Shown here in pieces: positions 4,277 through 48,410 of a stretch of 48,410 nt of DNA. This DNA is from a virus (Duplodnaviria; Heunggongvirae; Uroviricota; Caudoviricetes): positions 1 to 48,410 of IMG/VR virus record IMGVR_UViG_2531839667_000010. One strand, written 5' to 3'. A program made the position numbers and the translations under genes. A model generated the notes under the pieces. It saw only the letters and a program-made list of their open reading frames with translations, ran no database searches and was not told the origin of the DNA. Position 1 is the first letter of the stretch; the number at the start of each line of letters is the position of its first letter.

Positions 4277-5599
4277 ATGAGCGAGATTGCACCAACGAGC
4301 CTGTTACACCCTCTGAAAGCTACCGTTCTGGATTTTCAGGAGGATGAGCACGACTATCAGTTCAAGGTTGAATACCCGGAGCCGACCTGCTGCCATGCCT
4401 GCGGTGCAGTGTCTGACATCATCCGCTTTAACAAAAAGCTGGTGAAGTACCGGGATGTTCCCATGCACGGGAAGCGCGTCACGCTCTGGGTCGTAACACG
4501 CCGTTATCAGTGCAAATCATGCAAAGGCACATTCACCCCGGCCATCCCCGAGATGGCCGAAGCCCACCGCATGACAAAGCGCTGCTATCAGTACATCATT
4601 AAACGTGCGCTGACCGGCACTAACGCCAGCGTCGCGCAAGATGTTGGCTTTGATGAGTCCGTCACCCGTGGGGTCATCAAGTCCTACTGCGAGCAAAAGG
4701 CGAAGACCTATAAGCCTGTGCTGCCGCGAGTGCTGGGCATTGATGAGCTGTACCTGAACAAAACCTTCCGCTGTGTCCTGACCAACATCGAGCAGGGAAC
4801 CATTATTGACATACTGGAATCCCGGCAAAGTAACGTCATCTACAACCGTCTGGCGCATATGGAAGGCCGTGAGAACGTGCAGATCGTCTGTCAGGATATG
4901 TGGAAGCCATACCGTGACGTTGCCAGCCAGCTATTCCCTAAAGCCAGCATCGTCGTTGACCGCTTCCATATCCAGCGCATGGCTAACGAGGCGATGGAAA
5001 TGCTGCGTAAGTCGCTCAAAAAGGATCTGACAGTACACCACCGACGGCAGCTTAAAGGCGACCGTAAGATGATGTTGATGCGTAAGCGTGACCTTAACCC
5101 TATGCAGCAGATGATTATCGAAACGTGGCTGGATCACTATCCTGAGTTGGGTCTGGCCTATCAGCTCAAGGAAGAGTTCTTTGATATCTGGCTGGCACAG
5201 ACTGAACCTGAGGCCAGAATGCGCTATCAGAACTGGCTGGCAAAGATACCCGAGCATCATAAAAAGCACTGGAAGCCGCTGATAACATCCATGACGAACT
5301 GGGAGAAAGAGATATTCGCCTACTTCGGCCCGGCCCAGCGGAAGACCAACGCCTTTACGGAATCCATCAACCGCAAGATGCGCGATCTGAACCGTGATTC
5401 GCGCGGAATGTCCTTTGAGATGTTCAGGGCTAAAACACTGTTCACTCTCAAGCATAAGTTCAGCAAGCCTAAACCAGTGAAAGAATCACCGTTCACGGTT
5501 GGCTATGTCACCGCTGGTTCGTGGGATCTGGATGATGAAATCCGGGACGATTACGGCGTATCTATCGACGCTATTCTGGAATCCAAAATCGGCGAATAA
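4277..5599 (+). CDS. ISL3-family transposase
   Basis: 440 aa; N-terminal zinc-finger/HTH pattern (CCHACG ... [10 protein letters not shown]) typical of ISL3 transposases; sits between ISL3-like terminal repeats with an 8-bp duplication. Confidence 0.75.
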
Positions 5600-5885: not shown

Positions 5886-6449
5886 TTATTTCGTTTGAAT
5901 GCCAGTAACAGGAAATCGTTTATATAGGGTTGATAGCCCAACGTTATAGATACGTGCAACATAACGCCGTGATTTCCCTGCCGCTATGAGCGCTCCCATC
6001 TGTTGCCACTGCTCGTCGCTAAACTTCGGTCTACGCCCACCAATCCGGCCTTTGGATCTGGCAATAGCCAAACCAGCTAAAGTTCGCTCGCTATTCAAAT
6101 CAGATTCATACTGCGCAGCAGAAAGAATATTACGGAAATTATAGCGACCACTTGCTGTTTTCAGGTCTACGCCATCTGTAATACTGCGGAAGTTGATACC
6201 CTTTTCCTGTAACTGCTGGAACATCAACAGCGCATGCAGAACGTTGCGGCCTATCCTGTCCAGCTTCCAGACCACCAGTTCATCCCCCGGCTGCATAGTG
6301 GCGATCAGCCGTTTTAGAACCGGCCGATTCGATTTCCTCCCGCTGGCATGCTCTTCAAAAATTTTCTCACAACCCGCTGACTTGAGCGCCGTTAGTTGCA
6401 ATTCAGTGTCCTGGTGGTTTGTTGATACTCGGGCATAACCGTAAATCAT
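5886..6449 (-). CDS. Serine recombinase / DNA invertase (Pin/Gin/Hin family)
   Basis: 187 aa from MIYGYARVSTNHQDTELQ (catalytic Ser region) with a C-terminal HTH; AGGAG Shine-Dalgarno. The listed 278-aa ORF is an upstream over-extension. Confidence 0.85.
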   Translation of the reverse strand: MIYGYARVSTNHQDTELQLTALKSAGCEKIFEEHASGRKSNRPVLKRLIATMQPGDELVVWKLDRIGRNVLHALLMFQQLQEKGINFRSITDGVDLKTASGRYNFRNILSAAQYESDLNSERTLAGLAIARSKGRIGGRRPKFSDEQWQQMGALIAAGKSRRYVARIYNVGLSTLYKRFPVTGIQTK

Positions 6450-6501
6450 GGGATTTCTCCTGTTATGAAAACAGGAGAAACGGCGAAGCATCACCAGATT
6501 T

Positions 6502-6972
6502 TTGATGGTTATAAAAAAGGTTGGTTTGGGAGAAGGCTCTGCATTACCTGTTGGTGTCCCTGTTCCGTGGCCTTCAGCTACGCCGCCAACAGGCTGGCTG
6601 AAATGCAATGGCGCTGCCTTTGATAAGGTTAAATATCCCCGTCTTGCTACAGCATATCCATCAGGGAAACTACCTGATCTCCGCGGTGAGTTTATTCGTG
6701 GCTGGGATGATGGGCGCAGCATTGATACAGGGCGTGCTTTATTGAGTATTCAGAGTGATGAAGTCAGAAAGCTCGCATTAAAATACTGGGGACCAGCTTC
6801 AAACAGTTCACCATCAAAAACATTTGCACTCAGCGACAGTGCCGGTGGCGGGTTGTACACGGATGGAATAAGTCAGGCAAGCGGTGGGATTATCAACGCT
6901 TTTCAGCTCCCTGGCGGTAACGAAACCCGCCCACGAAATGTTGCATTTAACTATATCGTGAGGGCTGCATAA
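6502..6972 (+). CDS. Alternative tail-fibre C-terminal cassette, currently in the silent orientation
   Basis: No ATG (the frame opens after TGA 6466-6468); carries the conserved tail-fibre C-terminal motif PWPSATPPTGWLKCNGAAF...DLRGEFIRGWDDGR; preceded by a crossover site that shares reading phase with the expressed fibre. Confidence 0.6.
   Translation: MMVIKKVGLGEGSALPVGVPVPWPSATPPTGWLKCNGAAFDKVKYPRLATAYPSGKLPDLRGEFIRGWDDGRSIDTGRALLSIQSDEVRKLALKYWGPASNSSPSKTFALSDSAGGGLYTDGISQASGGIINAFQLPGGNETRPRNVAFNYIVRAA
6509..6534. other. Invertase crossover site (hix/gix-like), left
   Basis: TTATAAAAAAGGTTGGTTTGGGAGAA; its reverse complement TTCTCCCAAACCAACCTTTTTTATAA resembles hix and shares 14 bp with the right site. 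Confidence 0.6.
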
Positions 6973-36501: not shown

Positions 36502-36891
36502 TCAGGCGGCTGCACCCGCCGTTTTCTCGTACTTACTGATAGTGATTTCGACCTTCCCTTCCGGGATAACCGGCCCCCACTCCACCAGCATTCTTTTCAC
36601 CTGGCTGTCGTCCACCCACACACCCGCGTGGGTCAGGGCGTCAAACAGCGCCTTGTTATAGTTGTCCAGATCGCGAAGCCGGTTATCCGGAGGAAACAAC
36701 ACGATCTCCACTGAAGCTGGTGCCGACGTTGGTTTCGGCAGACGACGTAACTGCTCAATGATGGCTGCACACGCTGCGCTCTGGAATTTTCGCCCCGCCG
36801 CGCTTATCAGGCTCTTACCTGCAAGCGCCCCTTTGTTGGGGTGTCGCCAGTACGTGTTCACGCTGGGCGGAAAAGGCAGTATTAGCTTCAT
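36502..36891 (-). CDS. rusA: Holliday-junction resolvase RusA
   Basis: 129 aa; MKLILPFPPSVNTYW... with RusA catalytic Asp residues. Confidence 0.9.
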   Translation of the reverse strand: MKLILPFPPSVNTYWRHPNKGALAGKSLISAAGRKFQSAACAAIIEQLRRLPKPTSAPASVEIVLFPPDNRLRDLDNYNKALFDALTHAGVWVDDSQVKRMLVEWGPVIPEGKVEITISKYEKTAGAAA

Positions 36892-37214
36892 ACTTTCAGG
36901 CCCCTCTCATGTAACCAGTGGGCTGCACGCAGCCTGGCGTTTGCCTCACCGGCAAGCAGTGCGCGGATAATCCCGACCGCCTCGCTGTCGTCGTCCTTCA
37001 CCGCGGTATGAAGCGTGATGCCCCGGGCCACGCCACGCTTTATCGTGATGACGCCTTTTTTCTCCAGTGCGCGAAGATGCTCCACCGCTGCATTCACTGA
37101 ACGGTATCCCAGCATGGTTGCCACCTCCTGATTGGTTGGCGGGAAGCCACGTTCTTTCTGATAAGAAATCAGCATATCCAGCACCTGCTGCTGGCATTGA
37201 GTTAACGTCGTCAT
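36888..37214 (-). CDS. LexA-type winged-helix DNA-binding protein (no protease domain)
   Basis: 108 aa; ...NQEVATMLGYRSVNAAVEHLRALEKKGVI... resembles the LexA N-terminal domain. Confidence 0.55.
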   Translation of the reverse strand: MTTLTQCQQQVLDMLISYQKERGFPPTNQEVATMLGYRSVNAAVEHLRALEKKGVITIKRGVARGITLHTAVKDDDSEAVGIIRALLAGEANARLRAAHWLHERGLKV

Positions 37215-40725: not shown

Positions 40726-41291
40726 GCGTTAGTTTCTCCACAACCAGAAGCAATCGACGCCACGACGCCCGGAGCTGCACACTCGCGGGCGTTACTCTTT
40801 TCCGGCGCACAAAAAACACGAAATAACAGTGTTAAATGCTCCTGCCACTTCGCCATTACTTGGTAGCTGTTCTCTTCGATTTGCTCACGCTCAGCCTGGT
40901 CAATAACTCCATCAGCAGTTGCCTTGCGTAAGTACTGGGAATGCTTGCCAATCCATTCTATTGACTCCATCAGCCGCTGATTAATGTCACCAATGACCAC
41001 CAGCGGCACAAACACCCCATTACTACGACGGGCTATTGCATCTGTTACATGCCTGGTACCACTGGCATCCTGTAAAACCATGGCCCACTCAAGTGGAAAA
41101 ATTTGATCCCCACCGCTACGCAGTCTGTTATGCAATTGATCTTTTGCTGGGGTGATATCATCAGATTTATACAAACCAAGAATTTCTGCTGCTTCCTCAT
41201 AGCCATGAGGTAAATCAGCAATCGTTCTTCGTATTGCTGCCACCAGCCATGCTGGTTGTTTATCAACTTTCCATTCAGGTTCTTTACCCAC
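40722..41291 (-). CDS. Putative CII-like early regulator
   Basis: 189-aa ORF immediately after cro in the rightward operon; family assignment is positional and from a weak recollection of the CP76-type CII family. Confidence 0.4.
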   Translation of the reverse strand: MGKEPEWKVDKQPAWLVAAIRRTIADLPHGYEEAAEILGLYKSDDITPAKDQLHNRLRSGGDQIFPLEWAMVLQDASGTRHVTDAIARRSNGVFVPLVVIGDINQRLMESIEWIGKHSQYLRKATADGVIDQAEREQIEENSYQVMAKWQEHLTLLFRVFCAPEKSNARECAAPGVVASIASGCGETNA

Positions 41292-41318
41292 GGTTAATTC
41301 CTCATTTCTGTGGTGTTT

Positions 41319-41516
41319 TTATGCCGCAGCACTGTTAGTCTTTTGATATAAAGACACGTCAACTTTCAGTTTCCCGTTAGTAATTTTTTCTAACTGGTAC
41401 GCTCGGCCTTCAGGAATAATCTCAGGCCACTCTGAAACAGACGGATGCTTAATACCTAGGGCTTCGGCGGTTTTACAAACTCCGCCGAAATAATTAATCA
41501 CGTCGGATTTCCGCAT
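41319..41516 (-). CDS. cro: Cro-like repressor
   Basis: 65-aa HTH protein divergent from cI across an operator-rich 95-bp spacer. Confidence 0.75.
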   Translation of the reverse strand: MRKSDVINYFGGVCKTAEALGIKHPSVSEWPEIIPEGRAYQLEKITNGKLKVDVSLYQKTNSAAA

Positions 41517-41548
41517 TTCTGTCTCCCGTTAAATTACGTTAAGCAGAA

Positions 41549-41611
41549 ATGTAGGATATCCAACATACCAATGTCAAGAATCCTACATGGGCATGTGGTA
41601 GGATTGCCTAC
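41549..41611. promoter_or_regulatory. OR operator cluster with divergent pR/pRM
   Basis: 18-bp palindrome ATGTAGGATATCCAACAT (41549-41566) plus degenerate copies at 41571-41588 and 41593-41610. Confidence 0.6.
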
Positions 41612-42265
41612 ATGATGAACATGAGTGATCGTATTCGCCAAAGGCGAAAAGAACTGAACCTGACACAACAAGCACTGGCTGATTTGACTGGTGTGAACCG
41701 TGTCACGGTTACTGGATGGGAAAAGGACGACTACCAACCAAATGGAGCCAACCTTCAAGCCCTAGCCAACGCACTTAAATGCGATCCTCTGTGGCTTGTT
41801 AGCGGAAAAGGCTCGCCTGAACCAAAGATAAATCTAAAACCTGAAATATTCGCAGTTAAAAAAGTCCCCCTCATCTCGTGGGTTCAGGCGGGTTCATGGA
41901 CAATGACGGAGCCTGGTGTCAGGAAAGAAGATGCTGAAGAGTGGGTTTATACTACCGCCATTGTATCAGAAATGGCATTTGCACTACGGGTCCGTGGTGA
42001 TTCAATGACCAATCCCCTCGGCTCACCATCGATACCAGAAGGTTCTATCGTTATCGTAGAGCCAGATATTATTGATACAGAGTGTATTAACGGAAAAATC
42101 GTTGTTGCCCATATCAATGGTGGGCAAGAAGCGACACTCAAAAAATTTGTTGAGGACTGGCCGAACAGGTATCTCGTCCCACTAAATCCTAACTATAAAA
42201 CTATTGAATGCGGTGAGAACTGCAGAATAGTTGGTCTTGTCAAACAAGTAATAATGGATTTTTGA
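41612..42265 (+). CDS. cI: CI-type prophage repressor (HTH plus S24 LexA-like autopeptidase)
   Basis: 217 aa; N-terminal HTH (LTQQALADLTGV), C-terminal RVRGDSM Ser nucleophile and downstream Lys. Confidence 0.9.
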   Translation: MMNMSDRIRQRRKELNLTQQALADLTGVNRVTVTGWEKDDYQPNGANLQALANALKCDPLWLVSGKGSPEPKINLKPEIFAVKKVPLISWVQAGSWTMTEPGVRKEDAEEWVYTTAIVSEMAFALRVRGDSMTNPLGSPSIPEGSIVIVEPDIIDTECINGKIVVAHINGGQEATLKKFVEDWPNRYLVPLNPNYKTIECGENCRIVGLVKQVIMDF

Positions 42266-42286
42266 CACATCTTCCTCACTATCGCA

Positions 42287-42311
42287 AAACCGGGGTATCC
42301 CCGGTTTTTTT
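42287..42311 (+). terminator. Rho-independent terminator after cI
   Basis: Stem ccggggtatccccgg followed by T7. Confidence 0.7.
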
Positions 42312-42327
42312 ATGAGCCTATCTTTTT

Positions 42328-42385
42328 ATGTAGGATAACCAACATAAACTCTTGACACTCACATGTTGGATATCCTACATTTGTT
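42328..42385 (+). promoter_or_regulatory. OL operators and pL promoter
   Basis: Two copies of the 18-bp operator (ATGTAGGATAACCAACAT 42328-42345; ATGTTGGATATCCTACAT 42363-42380) flank TTGACA (42352-42357); the second operator overlaps the -10 region. Confidence 0.6.
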
Positions 42386-42445
42386 TTTAGAGTAGCCGCC
42401 GGTGGCGTATGAATGACCGGATGATTCGCTGACAGAAAACTTAGG

Positions 42446-42829
42446 TTGGGGGTAGAGGTTTACATGAATCATTTATTCACATGCTCATTTTGCGGAGCAA
42501 CCGAACTGGGAGCGATAAAGATCGTCGCAAAAGGTGGTAAGGACGAACCTGCCATCTGTTCGGAATGCGTAGTCACATGTGTAGAAAAAATGATCCTGAC
42601 TAAAAAATCAGAGGCTGAAAAACCAACCTCTGATAACGAAATAATATCAGTCGATAAAAAACTATTTAAAGAGCTTCTTCAGCTTGTCCTCAACCATCCT
42701 GATTTCGGAAGTAAGCTGGCTGCTGTTGACATTGATAGTAGCTCCACATCGACAAGTGAAACTTTTGTTCGACTTGAGCCAAGCGATTTTCTTCTTCGTC
42801 TTAGTGCCGCACTTAGGGCATGCGGGTAA
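42446..42829 (+). CDS. ClpX-type C4 zinc-finger protein, first gene of the pL operon
   Basis: 127 aa; N-terminus FTCSFCGATELGAIKIVAKGGKDEPAICSECVVTC resembles the ClpX zinc-binding domain (CSFCG...ICxEC) as I recall; GAGG Shine-Dalgarno 6 nt before the ATG; no AAA+ domain. Confidence 0.55.
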   Translation: MGVEVYMNHLFTCSFCGATELGAIKIVAKGGKDEPAICSECVVTCVEKMILTKKSEAEKPTSDNEIISVDKKLFKELLQLVLNHPDFGSKLAAVDIDSSSTSTSETFVRLEPSDFLLRLSAALRACG

Positions 42830-42942
42830 CGTAATTTCCTGGTTATCAAAAGCGCCCATAAACATCCCTCTTGGTTGTGTGAGAACACCAAGATACCACC
42901 GCGCCTGATGTGGTTAAAAGCAGGCTAAAGCAATAACAAGTA

Positions 42943-43003
42943 ACTCCCTGTTCTGGCGGCCCGGTGTTTTCCCGTGTATTTCCGGTAACCGCCAGCCTTT
43001 TTC
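42943..43003 (+). terminator. Terminator-like hairpin after the first pL gene (tL1-like position)
   Basis: Stem ctggcgg/ccgccag around a 29-nt loop, followed by CCTTTTTC. Confidence 0.3.
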
Positions 43004-43171
43004 AGGGCACAACAGAAAAGGGCATCACCGGGCGACGGGCTCATAACCCAATCCACCCGGGCAAAAAGAAAGCGGTCTCTGCAAGCCGCCGACCAATGCA
43101 GGTGCCCTTCTCTGTTGTGTATGGAGAAACTAACTTTTTAGCGCCGGTGCAGAGGCGTTGAGGAACCGAGA

Positions 43172-44089
43172 ATGAACAATCCGTTTTTCAAAAATATGTT
43201 GGTGTATCGCATTAGTCGCGATTTCACCATCAACCAGGAAGAGCTGGAACAGCAGCTTGAACTATTTCGCTTCACTCCATGCGGTAGCCAGGATATGGCA
43301 AAAACCGGTTGGGTATCACCACTTGGTCAGCTGTCAGATCGCTTGCATCACACTGTCAATAATCAAGTGTTGTTGGTTATTCGCCGGGAAGAAAAAATAC
43401 TGCCATCTCCTGTCATTGCTGAAGAACTGCGCAAGCGTGTGTCGCGTCTGGAATCCGATCAGGGGCGTCGCCTCAAAAAAACTGAGAAAGATTCGCTGCG
43501 TGATGAAGTGTTGCACTCCCTGCTTCCTCGGGCGTTCTCCAAAAACTCGACTGTTAGTTTGTGGATCAACGTCACCGACGGTCTGATCATGGTTGATGCA
43601 GCCAGCGCTAAACGTGCCGAAGACTCACTGGCCCTGCTTCGTAAAACTCTCGGTTCTCTCCCGGTGGTACCGCTGACTATGGAAACGCCGATCTAACTAA
43701 CTATGACCGAATGGGTTCGTTCCGGTAGTGCGCCTGCTGGCTTTGGCCTGGGTGATGAAGCCGAACTGAAAGCTATTCTTGAAGATGGCGGTATTGGACG
43801 CTTTAAAAAACAGACTCTGGTCAGTGACGAAATTCATGTGCATCTGGAAGCTGGCAAAGTAGTTACAAAGCTGTCTATCGACTGGCAACAGCGCATTCAG
43901 TTCGTTCTTTGCGATGACGGCAGCATCAAACGCCTTAAGTTCTCTAATGAGATTACAGAACAAAACGACGATATCGACCGTGAGGATGCGGCTCAGCGGT
44001 TCGACGCTGACTTTGTTCTGATGACCGGCGAGCTTATCTCTCTCATTAACGGATTAACAACCTCTCTCGGCGGCGAAGCCAAGCGATAA
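43172..44089 (+). pseudogene. rdgC: RdgC-like recombination-associated protein, interrupted by one in-frame TAA
   Basis: Listed ORFs 43172..43696 and 43703..44089 are in the same frame, separated only by TAA at 43694-43696; together they resemble full-length RdgC as I recall ([11 protein letters not shown]..., ...[19 protein letters not shown]...). Confidence 0.75.
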
Positions 44090-44170
44090 ACACCAGGCAA
44101 CAATTACCCCCATAAGCATGGGTTGGGTTGCTGCACGCTAAATTCAGCAATTCATTAATTTAATGGCGCG

Positions 44171-44737
44171 GTGCAGCGCGCCAATATGGAGAAAACCATG
44201 AGCTACATTCAGACATTATCCGGCAAACATTTTAATTACCTCGATATCCAACAGGACGATATCGTGATCGAGGATATTGCTACCGCGTTGTCTCATATCT
44301 GCCGCTTTGCAGGGCATCTTCCTGAGTTTTACAGTGTCGGCCAGCATAGCGTTTTAACCAGCCACCTCGTTCCGCAGGAGTTTGCATTAGAAGCACTGCT
44401 TCATGATGCTGCTGAAGCCTACCTGCAGGACATCCCCTCCCCACTTAAGCGCCTGCTTCCGGATTACCAGGCAATCGAAGCTCGTGTGGACGCAGCCATT
44501 CGGCAGAAGTTCGGTCTACCAACTGAGCAACACCCAACCGTGAAATATGCCGACCTGGTGATGCTCGCCAGCGAACGCCGCGATTTTGAGATTGACGAAG
44601 GTTCCATTTGGCCATGCCTCGAGGGAGTTGTCCCAACGGATTTATTCATTATCAACCCAGTTCGTCCTGGCCAGTCATACGGCATGTTCATCAATCGCTT
44701 TAACGAGTTGATGGAGCAGCGCCAATGCGCCGCATGA
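44171..44737 (+). CDS. HD-domain phosphohydrolase
   Basis: His and His-Asp motifs (SVGQHSVL..., ALLHDAAEAY); likely true start at ATG 44198 (GGAG Shine-Dalgarno). Confidence 0.7.
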   Translation: MQRANMEKTMSYIQTLSGKHFNYLDIQQDDIVIEDIATALSHICRFAGHLPEFYSVGQHSVLTSHLVPQEFALEALLHDAAEAYLQDIPSPLKRLLPDYQAIEARVDAAIRQKFGLPTEQHPTVKYADLVMLASERRDFEIDEGSIWPCLEGVVPTDLFIINPVRPGQSYGMFINRFNELMEQRQCAA

Positions 44738-44901
44738 AGGTAAAAGAACTCGTAGCGGAGGCGTTTGCCTCCGTTGCTGAATTGCCACCAAAGCATGCGC
44801 CGCTTATGCGCGAAGTCGCCACCAGACTGGACGCTACGTTCGCAGCATTAAAAGAGTCTCTGGTGCAACTGGAACAGGAACGTAAAGATAAAACGCCATG
44901 A
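44734..44901 (+). CDS. Small protein (55 aa), not in the ORF track, coupled on both sides
   Basis: ATG overlaps the HD gene stop (ATGA) and its stop overlaps the next start (ATGA); product MKVKELVAEAFASVAELPPKHAPLMREVATRLDATFAALKESLVQLEQERKDKTP. Confidence 0.4.
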   Translation: MKVKELVAEAFASVAELPPKHAPLMREVATRLDATFAALKESLVQLEQERKDKTP

Positions 44902-45152
44902 CCGTATTTGAATATCTCCAGGCTCATCCGAATACCACCAGCGGTGAAATCGCCAAAGGTATGAACAAAAAGACCCCAGCGGTCGCCGGAGCATTATCTC
45001 AGCTCTATGGCACCGGTCGGATCGTGAAGTCTGGTGTTCGCAAGGGTATTCCAACATACCGCATTAACGATATGCCGTTTGGTTGCAGTAACAGCCTAAC
45101 CATGATGTTTAACCAGCTCTTGAGCAGAGCCAGACAAGGAGCAGCCCAATGA
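44898..45152 (+). CDS. Hypothetical small protein, possible winged-helix
   Basis: 84 aa; ATGA-coupled within the pL operon. Confidence 0.5.
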   Translation: MTVFEYLQAHPNTTSGEIAKGMNKKTPAVAGALSQLYGTGRIVKSGVRKGIPTYRINDMPFGCSNSLTMMFNQLLSRARQGAAQ

Positions 45153-45496
45153 CAGCACTCAACAAACAGGCGCTGCGTGAAGAATTCCAGTTCATGCAGG
45201 ACAACTATAGCGACCCGGCAGACCACGATCGGCAGGTGATTTACATCGAGGCGGAGGCGCTGCTGGATGAGTTGGAAGCCAAAGACTCAACGATAGCAGC
45301 ACAACAACATGAGATCCGTATGTTGCTGAATGCGCTTGAGGAAAAACCATGCCCGAAATGCAACGACACAGGAATGACTGATAGTGGCGGCACGCAGCCA
45401 TGGGGCGAGCCGATTGAGATTGAATGCGACTGCCGACAGCAGGATGCCAACACCGCAGAACTTGTAGCCGCTGGCATTGGCGTGAAGGGGGAGTGA
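45149..45496 (+). CDS. Hypothetical protein with C-terminal CxxC...CxC zinc-ribbon motif
   Basis: 115 aa; CPKCNDTG...ECDC. Confidence 0.5.
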   Translation: MTALNKQALREEFQFMQDNYSDPADHDRQVIYIEAEALLDELEAKDSTIAAQQHEIRMLLNALEEKPCPKCNDTGMTDSGGTQPWGEPIEIECDCRQQDANTAELVAAGIGVKGE

Positions 45497-45497
45497 G

Positions 45498-45806
45498 ATG
45501 GATAAATTAATCAAACCTACCGCCAAAGGTAAATATGACGGTTCATGTGATTATCTTTGCTCGGAAGATGCGCGATTCATCGTTATGCGCGGCGATTATA
45601 CGGAAGCGGAAATAATTCAGGCTTCTGTGTCCCAAGATGTAATCGACTCGGATGGTGCGGCTGATTTTGCAAGTAGCGCCCGCTATTATCAGTGCTGGTA
45701 CAAAGTTAGCCCAATAGGTGGTCAGGATGGCTATTCAGGCTGGCATCATCCTCGTGATTCGCCGTGTCGCGGTGCATATTTCGCATCAGTTTTGCAATGG
45801 GATTAA
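45498..45806 (+). CDS. Hypothetical protein
   Basis: 102-aa ORF in the operon. Confidence 0.45.
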   Translation: MDKLIKPTAKGKYDGSCDYLCSEDARFIVMRGDYTEAEIIQASVSQDVIDSDGAADFASSARYYQCWYKVSPIGGQDGYSGWHHPRDSPCRGAYFASVLQWD

Positions 45807-45819
45807 GGAGGACTAACCC

Positions 45820-46287
45820 ATGACAACTAACAACCACCCGGCGCACGGTCCTGTATCACTCGATCGCCTGCACCAGATACGCGAACACCTGCTGCATGAT
45901 ACCCAATACTCAAACGGCGGGAACAGAGCCTACATTCTCGCTGATGTATTGAAGGTGATTGATGGGGCTATTGCCCGCGAGCTGGTACGCCGTGAGCATG
46001 CAGCGTGGTCACAGGCTACTTTCGGCGATGTCGGTCCAGTTGGTCCGCTGAAGCACCTTTCCAAAGAAGCGCTCGAGGCTGCTGCTGAACCAGGCGACCT
46101 TAGCGAATGGGCTGACATGCAATTCCTGTTATGGGATGCGCAACGTCGTGCCGGTATCAGTGATGAGCAGATTACCCAGGCAATGATAAAAAAGCTGGCT
46201 ATAAATAAGGTTCGCCAATGGCCTGAGCCGAAAGACGGGGAACCTCGATTGCATATCAAAGAACAGTCAGAGCAGGAGAAAAAATAA
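45820..46287 (+). CDS. Putative nucleotide pyrophosphohydrolase-like protein (MazG/DUF550-type)
   Basis: 155 aa; assignment from weak recollection of prophage dATP/dGTP pyrophosphohydrolase-like proteins. Confidence 0.35.
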   Translation: MTTNNHPAHGPVSLDRLHQIREHLLHDTQYSNGGNRAYILADVLKVIDGAIARELVRREHAAWSQATFGDVGPVGPLKHLSKEALEAAAEPGDLSEWADMQFLLWDAQRRAGISDEQITQAMIKKLAINKVRQWPEPKDGEPRLHIKEQSEQEKK

Positions 46288-46289
46288 GA

Positions 46290-46544
46290 ATGTTTAGCCT
46301 GATTCGGCGCGGTCAAATCTACACGGACAGTAGCAACTGGCCCGTAATTATCCATAGCTGTAGTGATCACTCGGTCCGAATTAAACGCAATGATGGCGAG
46401 CTGAGAACGATTAGCATCAAACGCTTTAACGAAGATTTTGAACGAGTGGAGCATGATGAGTATCGCAAAATATGTGCCGAAATAGAGCAGGAAACAAACC
46501 TGAAAAACCTACGTGCGATGCGTCGCGGCAAGATTACTGAATAG
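46290..46544 (+). CDS. Hypothetical small protein
   Basis: 84-aa ORF in the operon. Confidence 0.45.
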   Translation: MFSLIRRGQIYTDSSNWPVIIHSCSDHSVRIKRNDGELRTISIKRFNEDFERVEHDEYRKICAEIEQETNLKNLRAMRRGKITE

Positions 46545-46565
46545 CCAAACAGGAGAATATTTAAC

Positions 46566-47138
46566 GTGAACAACTTAATGATCGACCTTGAGTCCATGGG
46601 CAAAAAACCGAATGCCCCTATTGTCTCCATTGGTGCCGTATTCTTCGATCCGCAAAGCGGTGAACTGGGTCAGGAGTTTTACACCGCTGTTAATCTTGAA
46701 AGCGCTATGGAGCAGGGAGCGGTGCCGGATGGTGACACTATTCTGTGGTGGTTAAGACAAAGCTCAGAAGCACGATCAGCAATCTGTGTTGATGATGCGA
46801 TGCCGATATCATCTGCCCTATCTGAACTGAGCCATTTCATTAATCAGCATGCAGACAATACAAAATATTTAAAAGTCTGGGGTAACGGGGCCACCTTCGA
46901 CAACGTAATTTTACGTGGAGCTTACGAGCGAGCAGGACAAATCTGCCCGTGGGCGTACTGGAATGACCACGATGTACGCACGATCGTTACGCTTGGGCGT
47001 TCCATCGGATTCGCCCCCAAAATGGACATGCCTTTCGATGGCGAACGGCACAACGCCCTGGCCGATGCCCGTCATCAGGCAAAATATGTTTCCGCTATCT
47101 GGCAGAAATTAATTCCTGCCACCAGCACAGAATTATGA
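46566..47138 (+). CDS. DEDD-family 3'-5' exonuclease (DnaQ-like)
   Basis: N-terminal IDLES (Exo I D-x-E) and C-terminal HNALADARH (Exo III) motifs; AGGAGA Shine-Dalgarno. Confidence 0.75.
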   Translation: MNNLMIDLESMGKKPNAPIVSIGAVFFDPQSGELGQEFYTAVNLESAMEQGAVPDGDTILWWLRQSSEARSAICVDDAMPISSALSELSHFINQHADNTKYLKVWGNGATFDNVILRGAYERAGQICPWAYWNDHDVRTIVTLGRSIGFAPKMDMPFDGERHNALADARHQAKYVSAIWQKLIPATSTEL

Positions 47139-47147
47139 TTTTCCCGG

Positions 47148-47456
47148 GTGCAGCCGGTTTTGATGGAGAAAATTATGAACACCTTGTTTTTACTGATGGC
47201 TGAATTCAATACCCCTAACATTGAACTCTCAGCAGTTAGCCAAAAGTACTTTGGCATGAGTCCAGCCACGGCAGAAGCAAAAGCAAACGCTTGTAAGTTG
47301 CCCGTTCCAACATATCGCATCGGCACATCACAAAAAGCAAAACGTTGCATCAATATTCAGGATCTTGCGGAATACATAGACAAAAGACGAGAAGAAGGAC
47401 GTATCGAGTGGGAACAGGTCAGAACAGGCAAACAGAAGGGCAAAGAACATCACTAA
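47148..47456 (+). CDS. PrtN/AlpA-like small DNA-binding protein, possible excisionase
   Basis: Likely start at ATG 47175 (GGAG Shine-Dalgarno), about 93 aa; resembles excisionase-like PrtN-family regulators as I recall; last gene of the pL operon. Confidence 0.5.
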   Translation: MQPVLMEKIMNTLFLLMAEFNTPNIELSAVSQKYFGMSPATAEAKANACKLPVPTYRIGTSQKAKRCINIQDLAEYIDKRREEGRIEWEQVRTGKQKGKEHH

Positions 47457-47486
47457 AGAAAAAACCCGCCTAAAGGCGGGTTTTCA
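47457..47486. terminator. Bidirectional rho-independent terminator
   Basis: A-run, stem cccgcc/ggcggg (loop taaa), T-run. Confidence 0.7.
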
Positions 47487-47503
47487 AAAAGCACCAGCTA
47501 TGA

Positions 47504-47677
47504 TCATGCTGCTTTGCGACGACGAAGCTTACCCTGCTGCTCTTTACCAGAGACAGTAGCGTGAGTGAACGCATTAGGAGCAGCCTTCATCAGAACTTCA
47601 ACAGCAGCACCCATACCTGCGAATGCTTTCATTGTGTCGAACTTAACCTGTGGCTTGGTTGCTTTTTGATCTTTCAT
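47504..47677 (-). CDS. Small basic protein (57 aa), not in the ORF track
   Basis: ATG at 47675-47677 preceded by GGGAG; product MKDQKATKPQVKFDTMKAFAGMGAAVEVLMKAAPNAFTHATVSGKEQQGKLRRRKAA; ends at the bidirectional terminator. Confidence 0.35.
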   Translation of the reverse strand: MKDQKATKPQVKFDTMKAFAGMGAAVEVLMKAAPNAFTHATVSGKEQQGKLRRRKAA

Positions 47678-47737
47678 AGAAAACTCCCGAGACAGTAAAG
47701 GCGTCTCTAACCCTCTCTTTAAAGCTAGCTTGTTTCG

Positions 47738-47758
47738 CTAACTTATGCCAATCGATCA
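47738..47758. repeat. Perfect palindrome CCAATCGA-tcatg-TCGATTGG
   Basis: 8-bp inverted repeat with 5-bp spacer in the intergenic region between the two minus-strand genes. Confidence 0.4.
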
Positions 47759-47873
47759 TGTCGATTGGTGACATCGTTTCTTAGTAGTTTAAGCACAAAA
47801 CGACTGCCATAGATGTACCTTTAAGGTAATCTGGACGGGTATCCTACAATTTGTAGACCCTTCTCGTCTATAC

Positions 47874-48410
47874 CTACTGAGCAAATTTAAGAAAGATATC
47901 CTGCAGCTCATCAATGACTGCAGACATCACATAACCGCACTGTTCCATGCGGAAACCAAAAGACTCGTAATACTGCACCAGTTCTGGTACTGGCTCTACA
48001 ATGTGGACAACTTTACATTCAACAGCTTTACAAAATATAAAAGCACTCATAAGAGTGAGTAAAACCATGCGCCCTTTCAATGGGTGAGATTCATCTTCTC
48101 TAGAAAACCTTTCGATCATATGGATACGAAAGATGTTTTCTTCAACCCCATAAACACAAATTGCTGCTCCTGATGGTATTCCCTGAACCCGACCTTGCTG
48201 AACAAGTTTTATGCAGAACTCATACTTTTCTCTGGAGTTGCCATAGGTGCTTAACGCATAGTCCCATTCAAGCTCACCATAGCCACCACACAGAATCTTG
48301 TAATCATCATCACTGAGCGGACCAACAGCAAGAGGTAAGCCGACATGATCAATAATCAACTGGATATTGTTACGTACAGATTGACCTATCTCGTCTAGGG
48401 TAAGCATCAT
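47874..48410 (-). CDS. Hypothetical protein, possibly GNAT-like acyltransferase fold
   Basis: 178 aa; C-terminal ...PLKGRMVLLTL...VVHIVEPVPELVQYYESFGF loosely resembles GNAT motifs; start coincides with the window edge. Confidence 0.4.
   Translation of the reverse strand: MMLTLDEIGQSVRNNIQLIIDHVGLPLAVGPLSDDDYKILCGGYGELEWDYALSTYGNSREKYEFCIKLVQQGRVQGIPSGAAICVYGVEENIFRIHMIERFSREDESHPLKGRMVLLTLMSAFIFCKAVECKVVHIVEPVPELVQYYESFGFRMEQCGYVMSAVIDELQDIFLKFAQ

Follow-up and report, generated by a model that had tools for sequence, protein, structure and literature searches.

The 48,410-nt stretch of viral DNA analysed here (IMG/VR record IMGVR_UViG_2531839667_000010, positions 1 to 48,410; hereafter the window) is a lambda-like Escherichia coli prophage integrated at dusA. 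At positions 44,171–47,138 it carries a cluster of small genes that includes an HD-domain protein related to YfdR, a protein of 58 amino acids (aa), a DUF550 protein and a DexA-like exonuclease. Our preferred reading, to which we give a probability of about 0.6, is that this cluster makes up a distal, accessory portion of the prophage's early-left (pL) operon, and that it is a mosaic of exchangeable small genes rather than one pathway. As an accessory mosaic it is routine: its genes are catalogued, and its enzymes have studied relatives. Its genes are independently shuffled modules, except for the HD gene and the 58-aa gene, for which a tight linkage is now documented.

The genes of the cluster, together with the excisionase gene that follows them, are these:

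44198-44737, + strand: HD-domain protein (HD), 179 aa
44725-44901, + strand: small open reading frame (ORF), 58 aa
44898-45152, + strand: orf84, 84 aa
45149-45496, + strand: orf115, 115 aa
45498-45806, + strand: orf102, 102 aa, of a family limited to Enterobacterales and their phages
45820-46287, + strand: DUF550 protein, 155 aa
46290-46544, + strand: DUF4222 protein, 84 aa (PF13973, E 2e-10; phrog_285)
46566-47138, + strand: exonuclease, 190 aa, GTG start
47175-47456, + strand: PrtN-family excisionase (recombination directionality factor), 93 aa (PF11112, E 4e-23; phrog_1300 ‘excisionase’, E 1e-39)

The placement of these genes in an early-left operon draws on the repressor region and on a hairpin beyond the excisionase gene:

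41319-41516, - strand: Cro-like gene
41577-41548, - strand: promoter-like site ahead of the cro-like gene, with hexamers identical to those of the pL-like site (consensus scan)
41612-42265, + strand: CI-like repressor of the LexA family, facing the Cro-like gene
42352..42381, + strand: pL-like sigma-70 promoter (TTGACA, 18 nt, TACATT; consensus scan)
47460..47485: G+C-rich hairpin, located where the excisionase gene and a 57-aa - strand gene converge

Both promoter-like sites around the CI-like/Cro-like pair are directed outward, giving a lambda-like layout of cI, cro, pL and pR, and the cluster would therefore belong to the early-left (pL) operon, which lies on the + strand in the window. The pL-like site at 42352 is probably the start of the predicted early-left transcript spanning the cluster. 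The consensus scan found no + strand promoter-like site within 44171-47138. At the other end, the hairpin at 47460-47485 is the probable end of the predicted operon, which would make the excisionase gene its last gene. Here the scan calls a terminator on the - strand only (an 11-bp stem, then a T run), the stem on the + strand being trailed only by TTTTC, and the Rfam matches at this position are terminator-like but below threshold.

Linkage among the cluster genes was assessed in 80 IMG/VR loci anchored on the HD gene (85-100% identity, with 7-kb flanks). The genes were present in these loci as follows:

58-aa gene: 78 of 80
exonuclease: 47 of 80
orf84: 39 of 80
DUF550 catalytic core: 16 of 80
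DUF4222: 9 of 80
orf115: 5 of 80
orf102: 4 of 80

These counts describe modules that shuffle independently, the HD/58-aa pair excepted, a behaviour typical of lambda's exo-xis region and of the ea region of P22. We had also considered HD, DUF550 and the exonuclease as a co-inherited trio, and rejected it: initial DUF550 counts of 36/80 and 74/80 reflected a shuffled N-terminal module of 52 aa, the catalytic core itself being found in 16/80 and 19/80. In the loci anchored on the 58-aa gene (orf58), this N-terminal module was present in 71 of 80, compared with 19 of 80 for the DUF550 core.

An intact ORF of 58-66 aa overlaps the HD stop codon in 78 of the 80 HD-anchored loci. The overlap between the two genes is of two types, 13 nt long in 38 loci and a one-base TAATG in 41. 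When the scan was reversed and anchored on the small protein, the HD gene lay directly upstream in 79 of 80 loci, and these included HD variants of 69-73% identity. The small protein occurred as 36 distinct variants, down to about 45% identity, with the common core KVK-LV-A...LPP..A.LM...A.RL..T..AL.E, and the ratio of non-synonymous to synonymous substitution rates (dN/dS) of the ORF was 0.09-0.17 where dS was unsaturated. The small ORF is a genuine gene under purifying selection, and it is an obligate neighbour of this HD lineage. Its start is the ATG at 44725, the first ATG and a GGAG 8 nt upstream being conserved, and not the one at 44734, which is codon 4 of the gene and reads GTA, GTG or ATG in divergent homologues. 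The sequence-only reading, which had described an unannotated 55-aa ORF at 44734..44901, was thus right to see a real gene here; the gene is, however, 58 aa long from 44725, and it is annotated in both RefSeq (WP_001253785.1) and PHROGs (phrog_12248, E 1e-34).

In an AlphaFold 2 model of the 58-aa protein (mean predicted local distance difference test score, pLDDT, 82.8), two helices are predicted, spanning residues 6-18 and 25-56, and the conserved LPP motif lies in the loop that connects them. A wider homologue search with this protein returned close relatives only, of at least 76% identity over most of its length, the divergent members coming from the IMG/VR loci. A kinship with the N-terminus of YfdS was tried and rejected (hhalign probability 1%). 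We found no published description of the linkage between the HD and 58-aa genes, which is the sole feature of the cluster in this position.

Over 178 aa, the HD protein shares 64% identity with YfdR of the E. coli K-12 cryptic prophage CPS-53 (tblastn E 2e-80). Its start is the ATG at 44198, which has a GGAG 6 nt upstream and agrees with the start of K-12 YfdR, and not the GTG at 44171. The three domain assignments made from the letters of the window (HD, MazG-like and DEDD) all pass profile searches, with matches to phrog_318 (E 9e-97), PF04447 and PF16473, respectively, although the Pfam score of the HD protein is sub-threshold. The whole HD protein also aligns with the HD-domain protein Atu1052 (PDB 2GZ4, E 4e-13). 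It has the metal-binding motif H...HD...D, its motif residues being R36-F37, H50, H69-D70, E73, D78 and D119, and the segment around H69-D70 aligns with residues 60-100 of YfbR (2PAQ), reading ALLHDAAE where YfbR has AMYHDASE. The NCBIfam model for 5'-deoxynucleotidase gives it 17.8, compared with a cut-off of 122, and by sequence the protein is grouped with YfdR and not with the YfbR equivalog. T5 Dmp was considered as a model for the HD protein and set aside as unrelated, with a BLASTP E above 3 and T5 Dmp itself in phrog_415, so the PHROG name ‘deoxyribonucleoside 5' monophosphate phosphatase’ is not derived from T5.

YfdR was described by Noguchi and Katayama as a structural homologue of the 5'-deoxynucleotidase YfbR that has far lower affinity for nucleotides (PMC4776307). 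The purified protein binds DnaA through domain I, Phe46 of DnaA being important for binding, and initiation at oriC is inhibited when yfdQ and yfdR are supplied in extra copies along with yfdS or yfdT (PMC4776307). The weak 5'-deoxynucleotidase activity and the DnaA binding have been reported for K-12 YfdR alone. The HD and 58-aa proteins might conceivably form a two-protein cassette, although we regard this as improbable. The small protein would then be a needed partner, as targeting subunit or regulator, of a phage factor that shuts down DnaA-dependent host initiation or reshapes deoxynucleoside monophosphate (dNMP) pools early after induction, and the pairing would take the place of the YfdQ, YfdS and YfdT helpers. 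The papers found contain no description of such a cassette.

The DUF550 protein falls in PF04447, a family of all-alpha NTP pyrophosphohydrolases that today bears the name dATP/dGTP pyrophosphohydrolase. The match (E 4e-44) scores 149.4 bits where the cut-off is 23 and spans almost the whole profile, from position 2 to 96 of 97; the protein also matches MazZ of cyanophage S-2L (PDB 7ODY, E 8e-4). When residue roles were mapped from the work of Czernecki et al. (PMC8342488), four of the five metal ligands of MazZ, including the classical ExxE...ExxD set, were found conserved in the alignment: E83, E86, E96 and D99 correspond to E35, E38, E50 and D53, while the fifth ligand, E34, is K82 in the window protein. 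The second-chain pocket of MazZ (K76, N80, R83, W85) is likewise present as K125, N129, R132 and W134, and MazZ D60 corresponds to D106. The protein has two parts, the shuffled N-terminal module (residues 1-52) and the catalytic domain (residues 53-151). The core shares 84% identity with the central part of P22 EaA, a fusion of DUF550 and DUF551; the window protein ends right after DUF550, without a DUF551 tail, and for this reason carries a ‘missing C-terminus’ flag from the Prokaryotic Genome Annotation Pipeline (PGAP). Despite the flag, an identical protein occurs on at least 1000 contigs. As a separate observation, the N-terminal module (45820-45975, MTTNNHPAHGPVSLDRLHQIRE...KVIDG) heads unrelated C-terminal domains elsewhere, for example in a 224-aa Citrobacter protein (P0036) with DnaJ-like CxxCxG motifs.

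Enzymes of this kind have been placed in a pathway before. In Z-genome phages, DUF550 or MazZ works with DatZ, a YfbR-like HD enzyme, and with PurZ, and DUF550 has been found to hydrolyse dATP and dGTP (PMC12884076). By analogy, the cluster could encode one pathway of DNA and deoxynucleoside triphosphate (dNTP) catabolism, resembling DatZ/MazZ without PurZ, in which the exonuclease frees dNMPs, DUF550 converts dNTPs to dNMPs and the HD protein converts dNMPs to nucleosides. The predicted reactions are indeed consecutive, DatZ pairs with MazZ or DUF550 in Z-genome phages (PMC12884076, PMC8342488), and DUF551 joins the two families, being fused to DUF550 in P22 EaA and forming YfdS, which follows yfdR in K-12. 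Yet only 16/80 and 19/80 loci pair the DUF550 core with the HD gene and 47/80 pair the exonuclease with it, the cluster has no DUF551 domain, the nucleotide affinity of YfdR is low (PMC4776307), and the DatZ and DUF550 proteins of Z-genome phages form separate clades of their own (PMC12884076). Moreover, among the ORFs of 300-390 aa in the early-right region, the nin region and the left end, which were scanned whereas those of the structural genes were not, none matched PurZ, a PurA homologue of the adenylosuccinate synthetase family. A single catabolic pathway is distinctly unlikely on this evidence, and the Z-genome (PurZ) reading of the HD/DUF550 pair was rejected, PurZ not being found among the ORFs scanned. 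Independently of any pathway, DUF551 can be seen as a bridge between the HD and DUF550 families at the level of domains, one that the window lacks.

The last gene before the excisionase gene is predicted to encode a 3'-5' exonuclease of the DexA/Rv2179c type, of the DEDDh class. Its product matches PF16473 (Rv2179c-like; E 6e-74, 248 bits) and phrog_255, the nearest solved structures being PDB 8KEL/8KEN (E 8e-8). It is 30% identical to T4 DexA, with all DEDDh residues conserved (D7, E9, D112, H162 and D167). In DexA, W152 belongs to the pocket for 5-hydroxymethylcytosine (5hmC), and its equivalent here is W132; the position of D169 is occupied by S146, and that of the tetramerisation residue D90 by S83. 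A homologue of DexA in E. coli, EcD (‘HREX’), digests 5hmC-containing T4 DNA and protects cells from T4 (Kang et al., PMC12153337), and the same study found the Asp of the 5hmC pocket (DexA D169) to be poorly conserved. The window exonuclease is not the published EcD, an identity that we considered and rejected, since the EcD primer sequences indicate a related but different protein.

The EcD precedent raises the possibility that the cluster serves prophage defence or superinfection exclusion, with the exonuclease digesting the 5hmC DNA of T-even phages while DUF550 and HD lower the dNTP and dNMP pools of the invader. T4 DNA was digested and cells were protected in that precedent (PMC12153337), and the window exonuclease has the DEDDh residues and a Trp equivalent to W152 of DexA and, like EcD, lacks the tetramerisation Asp; an exclusion role has also been suggested for phage RdgC, because of its RexA-like fold (PMC12315714). 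Set against this, the genes sit in a repressed pL operon with no + strand promoter-like site inside the cluster, the proposed 5-hydroxymethyl reader of DexA, D169, is Ser146 here, the sequence of EcD differs from that of the window exonuclease, and rdgC is broken in the window copy. PADLOC, in addition, found no defence-system model: its sole match was a generic Cas-associated DEDDh model for the exonuclease (E 4e-5), and the other nine proteins gave none. We think a defence role unlikely.

The sequence-only reading had suggested, as speculation, the converse link, in which the cluster counters nucleotide-based host defences. Here, its enzymes would destroy second messengers, or restore or alter nucleotide pools, against CBASS, Pycsar, Thoeris or dNTP-depletion systems. 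Circumstantially, the genes would be expressed early and three of the proteins are predicted to act on nucleotides or nucleic acids, and lambdoid early-left accessory regions carry the anti-restriction and anti-RecBCD genes ral, gam and abc, as annotated. In the literature searched, however, no anti-defence enzyme was described for the HD, DUF550 or exonuclease families, and their characterised relatives act on dNMPs, dNTPs and DNA ends rather than on cyclic nucleotides: YfdR binds DnaA (PMC4776307), EcD acts against T4 (PMC12153337) and DUF550 hydrolyses dATP and dGTP (PMC12884076). The three genes are, besides, not co-inherited, the DUF550 core lying near HD in 16 of 80 loci. The PADLOC library consists of models of defence proteins, so counter-defence was not directly tested by it. 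The suggested link found no support, and a counter-defence role seems to us very doubtful.

In describing the cluster, the sequence-only reading had placed it with RdgC where lambda has exo/bet/gam. The absence was borne out: with lambda Exo, Bet, Gam, Kil, CIII and N and P22 Erf, Arf and Abc1/2 as queries, tblastn against the window gave no hit at E <= 0.01. Nor did a single-strand annealing protein come to light, the queries being lambda Bet and P22 Erf only, with RecT, Sak and other families not queried separately. The rdgC gene cited in that description is interrupted:

43172..44089, + strand: rdgC, with an in-frame TAA at 43694-43696 and Pfam RdgC matching both halves

This is the first large gene after the repressor region. 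The stop results from a single G-to-T change where E. coli AH04 and the Nissle 1917 prophage, the two copies compared, have GAA (Glu175), and only in the window copy is the gene split, into ORFs of 174 aa and 128 aa. In the window, rdgC is a pseudogene or split gene.

The window is also rich in Chi sites (GCTGGTGG), of which it contains 19 compared with 1.9 expected, a number that none of 100 shuffles reached. They are found at the following positions:

2956, 26680, 31399, 31546, 31851, 32598, 33418, 35033, 35162, 35433, 36582, 37478, 40177, 40404, 40680, 40997, 41240, 44935, 47119

Fifteen of the 19 are on the - strand, from which Nu1 and gpA are encoded, and four on the other; 11 of these 15 lie between the lysis genes and cro, near the Nu1 gene, the presumed location of cos. 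Two sites fall inside the cluster. A class of lambdoid phages defined in 2025 lacks a Rec module, is rich in Chi and depends on host RecBCD (PMC12315714), and by its gene content and Chi excess the prophage appears to fit this class; the 19 sites predict a dependence on RecBCD.

One might instead suppose that RdgC and the 3'-5' exonuclease substitute for Exo/Bet/Gam as a recombination module. The phage lacks Red, Erf and Gam homologues, as such a substitution would have it, and DnaQ-like nucleases do occur within some lambdoid Rec modules (PMC12315714). But the premature stop in rdgC, the failure of the lambda Bet and P22 Erf queries to detect an annealing protein, and the 19 Chi sites, which fit reliance on host RecBCD, all speak against it. 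So does the location of rdgC and the exonuclease gene at opposite ends of the operon, an arrangement described as not belonging to a Rec module: RdgC genes near cI and stray genes for DnaQ-type nucleases near int were not counted as Rec modules in that survey (PMC12315714). We regard a substitute module as extremely unlikely.

Returning to the accessory-mosaic reading, one of the remaining genes of the cluster points to the ea-type regions of lambda and P22. The orf115 product begins with an Ead/Ea22 module, 65% identical over residues 1-55 to P22 EaD, which itself matches Pfam Ead_Ea22; its similarity to the N-terminus of lambda Ea22 is weak in a direct protein comparison (38% identity, E 0.002). 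It belongs to phrog_19867 and carries a C-terminal motif C68-x2-C71 ... C93-x-C95. Lambda Ea22 has been reported to favour lysogeny (PMC7093339). The orf84 product matches phrog_1687, a ‘MarR family’ group with a winged helix (E 7e-25).

The junctions between the genes are unexceptional. From HD to the excisionase gene the gaps are -13, -4, -4, +1, +13, +2, +21 and +36 nt, making three overlaps, two of which are ATGA. Nine consecutive genes linked by ATGA or short overlaps had been proposed from the letters; the run of genes is real, but eight lie in the range, the ninth being the excisionase gene, and the packing is ordinary. Of the 8 cluster junctions, 5 have gaps of 2 nt or less; elsewhere in the closely related AH04 prophage this holds for 25 of 48 same-strand junctions (Fisher p = 0.71), and the gene spacing is ordinary for a phage. 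GGAG-type ribosome-binding sites precede every start in the cluster except that of orf84, which lacks a Shine-Dalgarno sequence and so plausibly depends on the ATGA that it shares with the end of the 58-aa gene. Genuine coupling of translation is likely only at the junctions between the HD, 58-aa, 84-aa and 115-aa genes.

The analysis itself establishes the identities, homologies and motifs of the genes, their linkage and the excess of Chi. Taken together, these data suggest the following model, whose activities, operon structure and roles are all predicted. Once the CI-like repressor is inactivated, transcription would start at the pL-like promoter at 42352 and end at the hairpin past the excisionase gene. 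The YfdR-like HD protein and its 58-aa partner would bind DnaA and damp initiation at oriC, the HD protein possibly acting as a weak dNMP phosphatase as well, and the phage would carry out its own replication through its O-like initiator (phrog_391, E 8e-102). The DUF550 enzyme would convert dGTP and dATP to monophosphates, and the DexA-like DEDDh exonuclease would trim DNA 3' ends. The Ead/Ea22-like protein may bias the decision between lysis and lysogeny, and the product of the last gene would act as the excisionase.

Several observations weigh against this model. Promoter and terminator alike are matches to a consensus and nothing more, tblastn against the window revealed no N-like antiterminator, and each activity is taken from relatives of 30-64% identity or from kinship at the level of profiles alone. 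For the HD protein, the match to Pfam PF12917 (YfbR-like) stays below threshold, at 21.7 bits where 25.9 is the cut-off (E 1.8e-4). The effect of YfdR on initiation was a multicopy effect that needs yfdQ with yfdS or yfdT, all absent from the window, and deletion of yfdQRST gave no phenotype in initiation or in resistance to hydroxyurea (PMC4776307). PGAP, finally, treats the DUF550 gene as truncated.

Positions 43100-47500 are 99.9% identical to E. coli AH04, AH02 and CT01, and 97.6% identical, over 93% of the length, to a prophage of Nissle 1917; every gene of the cluster is already annotated in the AH04 and Nissle 1917 records, and the exact proteins are publicly catalogued, several being recorded on at least 1000 contigs, the limit of the count. 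As Nissle 1917 is a probiotic, the near-identical block in its prophage gives some practical value to knowing the functions of these early genes. Although AH04 (NZ_CP081706 4455733-4504142) shares the early-left region at 99.9%, its prophage is annotated with a contractile tail (sheath, tube and baseplate). The window carries Nu1, gpA and portal genes of lambda type and, on the - strand, an ORF of 1296 aa. In AH02 and CT01, the early region is found on separate records of about 43.7 kb, possibly excised phage circles.

Other features of the window, outside the cluster, are these:

541-1578, - strand: dusA, at the window's left end
1667-2764: tyrosine integrase, at the left end, next after dusA
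4277-5599 and 5886-6722: ISL3-family transposase gene and serine resolvase/invertase gene, flanked by the integrase end and the genes for tail-fibre assembly
on the - strand: lambda-type Nu1, gpA and portal genes
36888-37214, - strand, in the nin-like region: 108-aa protein consisting of a LexA DNA-binding domain alone (PF01726, E 3e-19; RefSeq ‘LexA repressor’)
42464-42829, + strand: predicted ClpX-type C4 zinc-finger protein (phrog_20296), the first gene past the pL-like promoter
42662-42865, - strand: 67-aa ORF with a CxxC...CxC pattern, overlapping the 3' part of the zinc-finger gene, no PHROG match
42634-42607: strong terminator-like hairpin (12-bp stem and T run), 3' of the 67-aa - strand ORF
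47504-47677, - strand: phrog_2741 gene
47874-48410, - strand: phrog_4350 gene

The last two genes lie between the excisionase gene and the right end of the prophage, a typical site of moron or cargo genes, and neither has a Pfam or PADLOC match. Antisense ORFs of the region, including one of 174 aa at 45930-46454, were considered as genes and rejected, with no family match save one weak one. A regulatory RNA in the spacer between rdgC and HD, or elsewhere in 41200-48410, was likewise rejected (fold z-score -1.65; Rfam matches terminator-like and sub-threshold).

Among known systems, the HD gene has its closest counterpart in yfdQ-yfdR-yfdS-yfdT of K-12 CPS-53. In both, it is part of an early-left operon and lies upstream of an excisionase gene (torI in K-12), and in both the next gene overlaps its 3' end, by 10 nt in K-12 and 13 nt here. 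The two differ in that the window has no homologues of YfdQ (DUF2303), YfdS (DUF551) or YfdT, and in that the upstream neighbour is RdgC rather than YfdQ. In K-12 as in phage mEp460, the gene that follows yfdR encodes the DUF551 protein YfdS, which is no relative of the 58-aa protein; it, too, overlaps yfdR. The DUF550 protein, for its part, is of the same family (PF04447) as the Z-genome enzymes S-2L MazZ (7ODY) and SH-Ab 15497 DUF550, with which it shares four of five metal ligands and the second-chain pocket; it differs from them in lacking a DUF5664 fusion and in having Phe in place of N20, the O6-reading residue of MazZ. The exonuclease resembles EcD in lacking both the DexA-specific loops and an Asp at the D90 position, but its termini are unlike those that the primers indicate for EcD (MIDTE... 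at the start and ...TIPETYD at the end), and it differs from both T4 DexA and EcD in being encoded in the early operon of a repressed prophage.

At the level of the prophage, the likeness to the Chi-rich LLS class (PMC12315714) extends from the absence of Exo, Bet, Gam, Erf and Abc homologues and the many Chi sites to an RdgC gene near cI and a DnaQ-type nuclease gene near the excisionase end, with the difference that four Chi sites of the window are on the opposite strand. At the level of the cluster, the match is to the exo-xis region of lambda and ea region of P22, whose accessory genes sit between the genes for recombination and xis (PMC7093339, PMC8614690). Judged from its genes, the cluster is the apparent counterpart of these regions, and not of exo/bet/gam as had been proposed, because Ead/Ea22-like and EaA-like genes adjoin xis. 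It has the same position in the pL operon and the same orientation, with small, tightly packed genes, and as in P22 an EaD-like gene and a DUF550 gene of the EaA type are found a short way upstream of xis. It differs from lambda exo-xis in that tblastn found no homologue of orf60a, orf63, orf61 or ea8.5 in the window, and from P22 in that its EaA-like gene has no DUF551 domain. Relative to both, the region lacks exo/bet/gam upstream and adds a YfdR-like HD gene and a DexA-like exonuclease.

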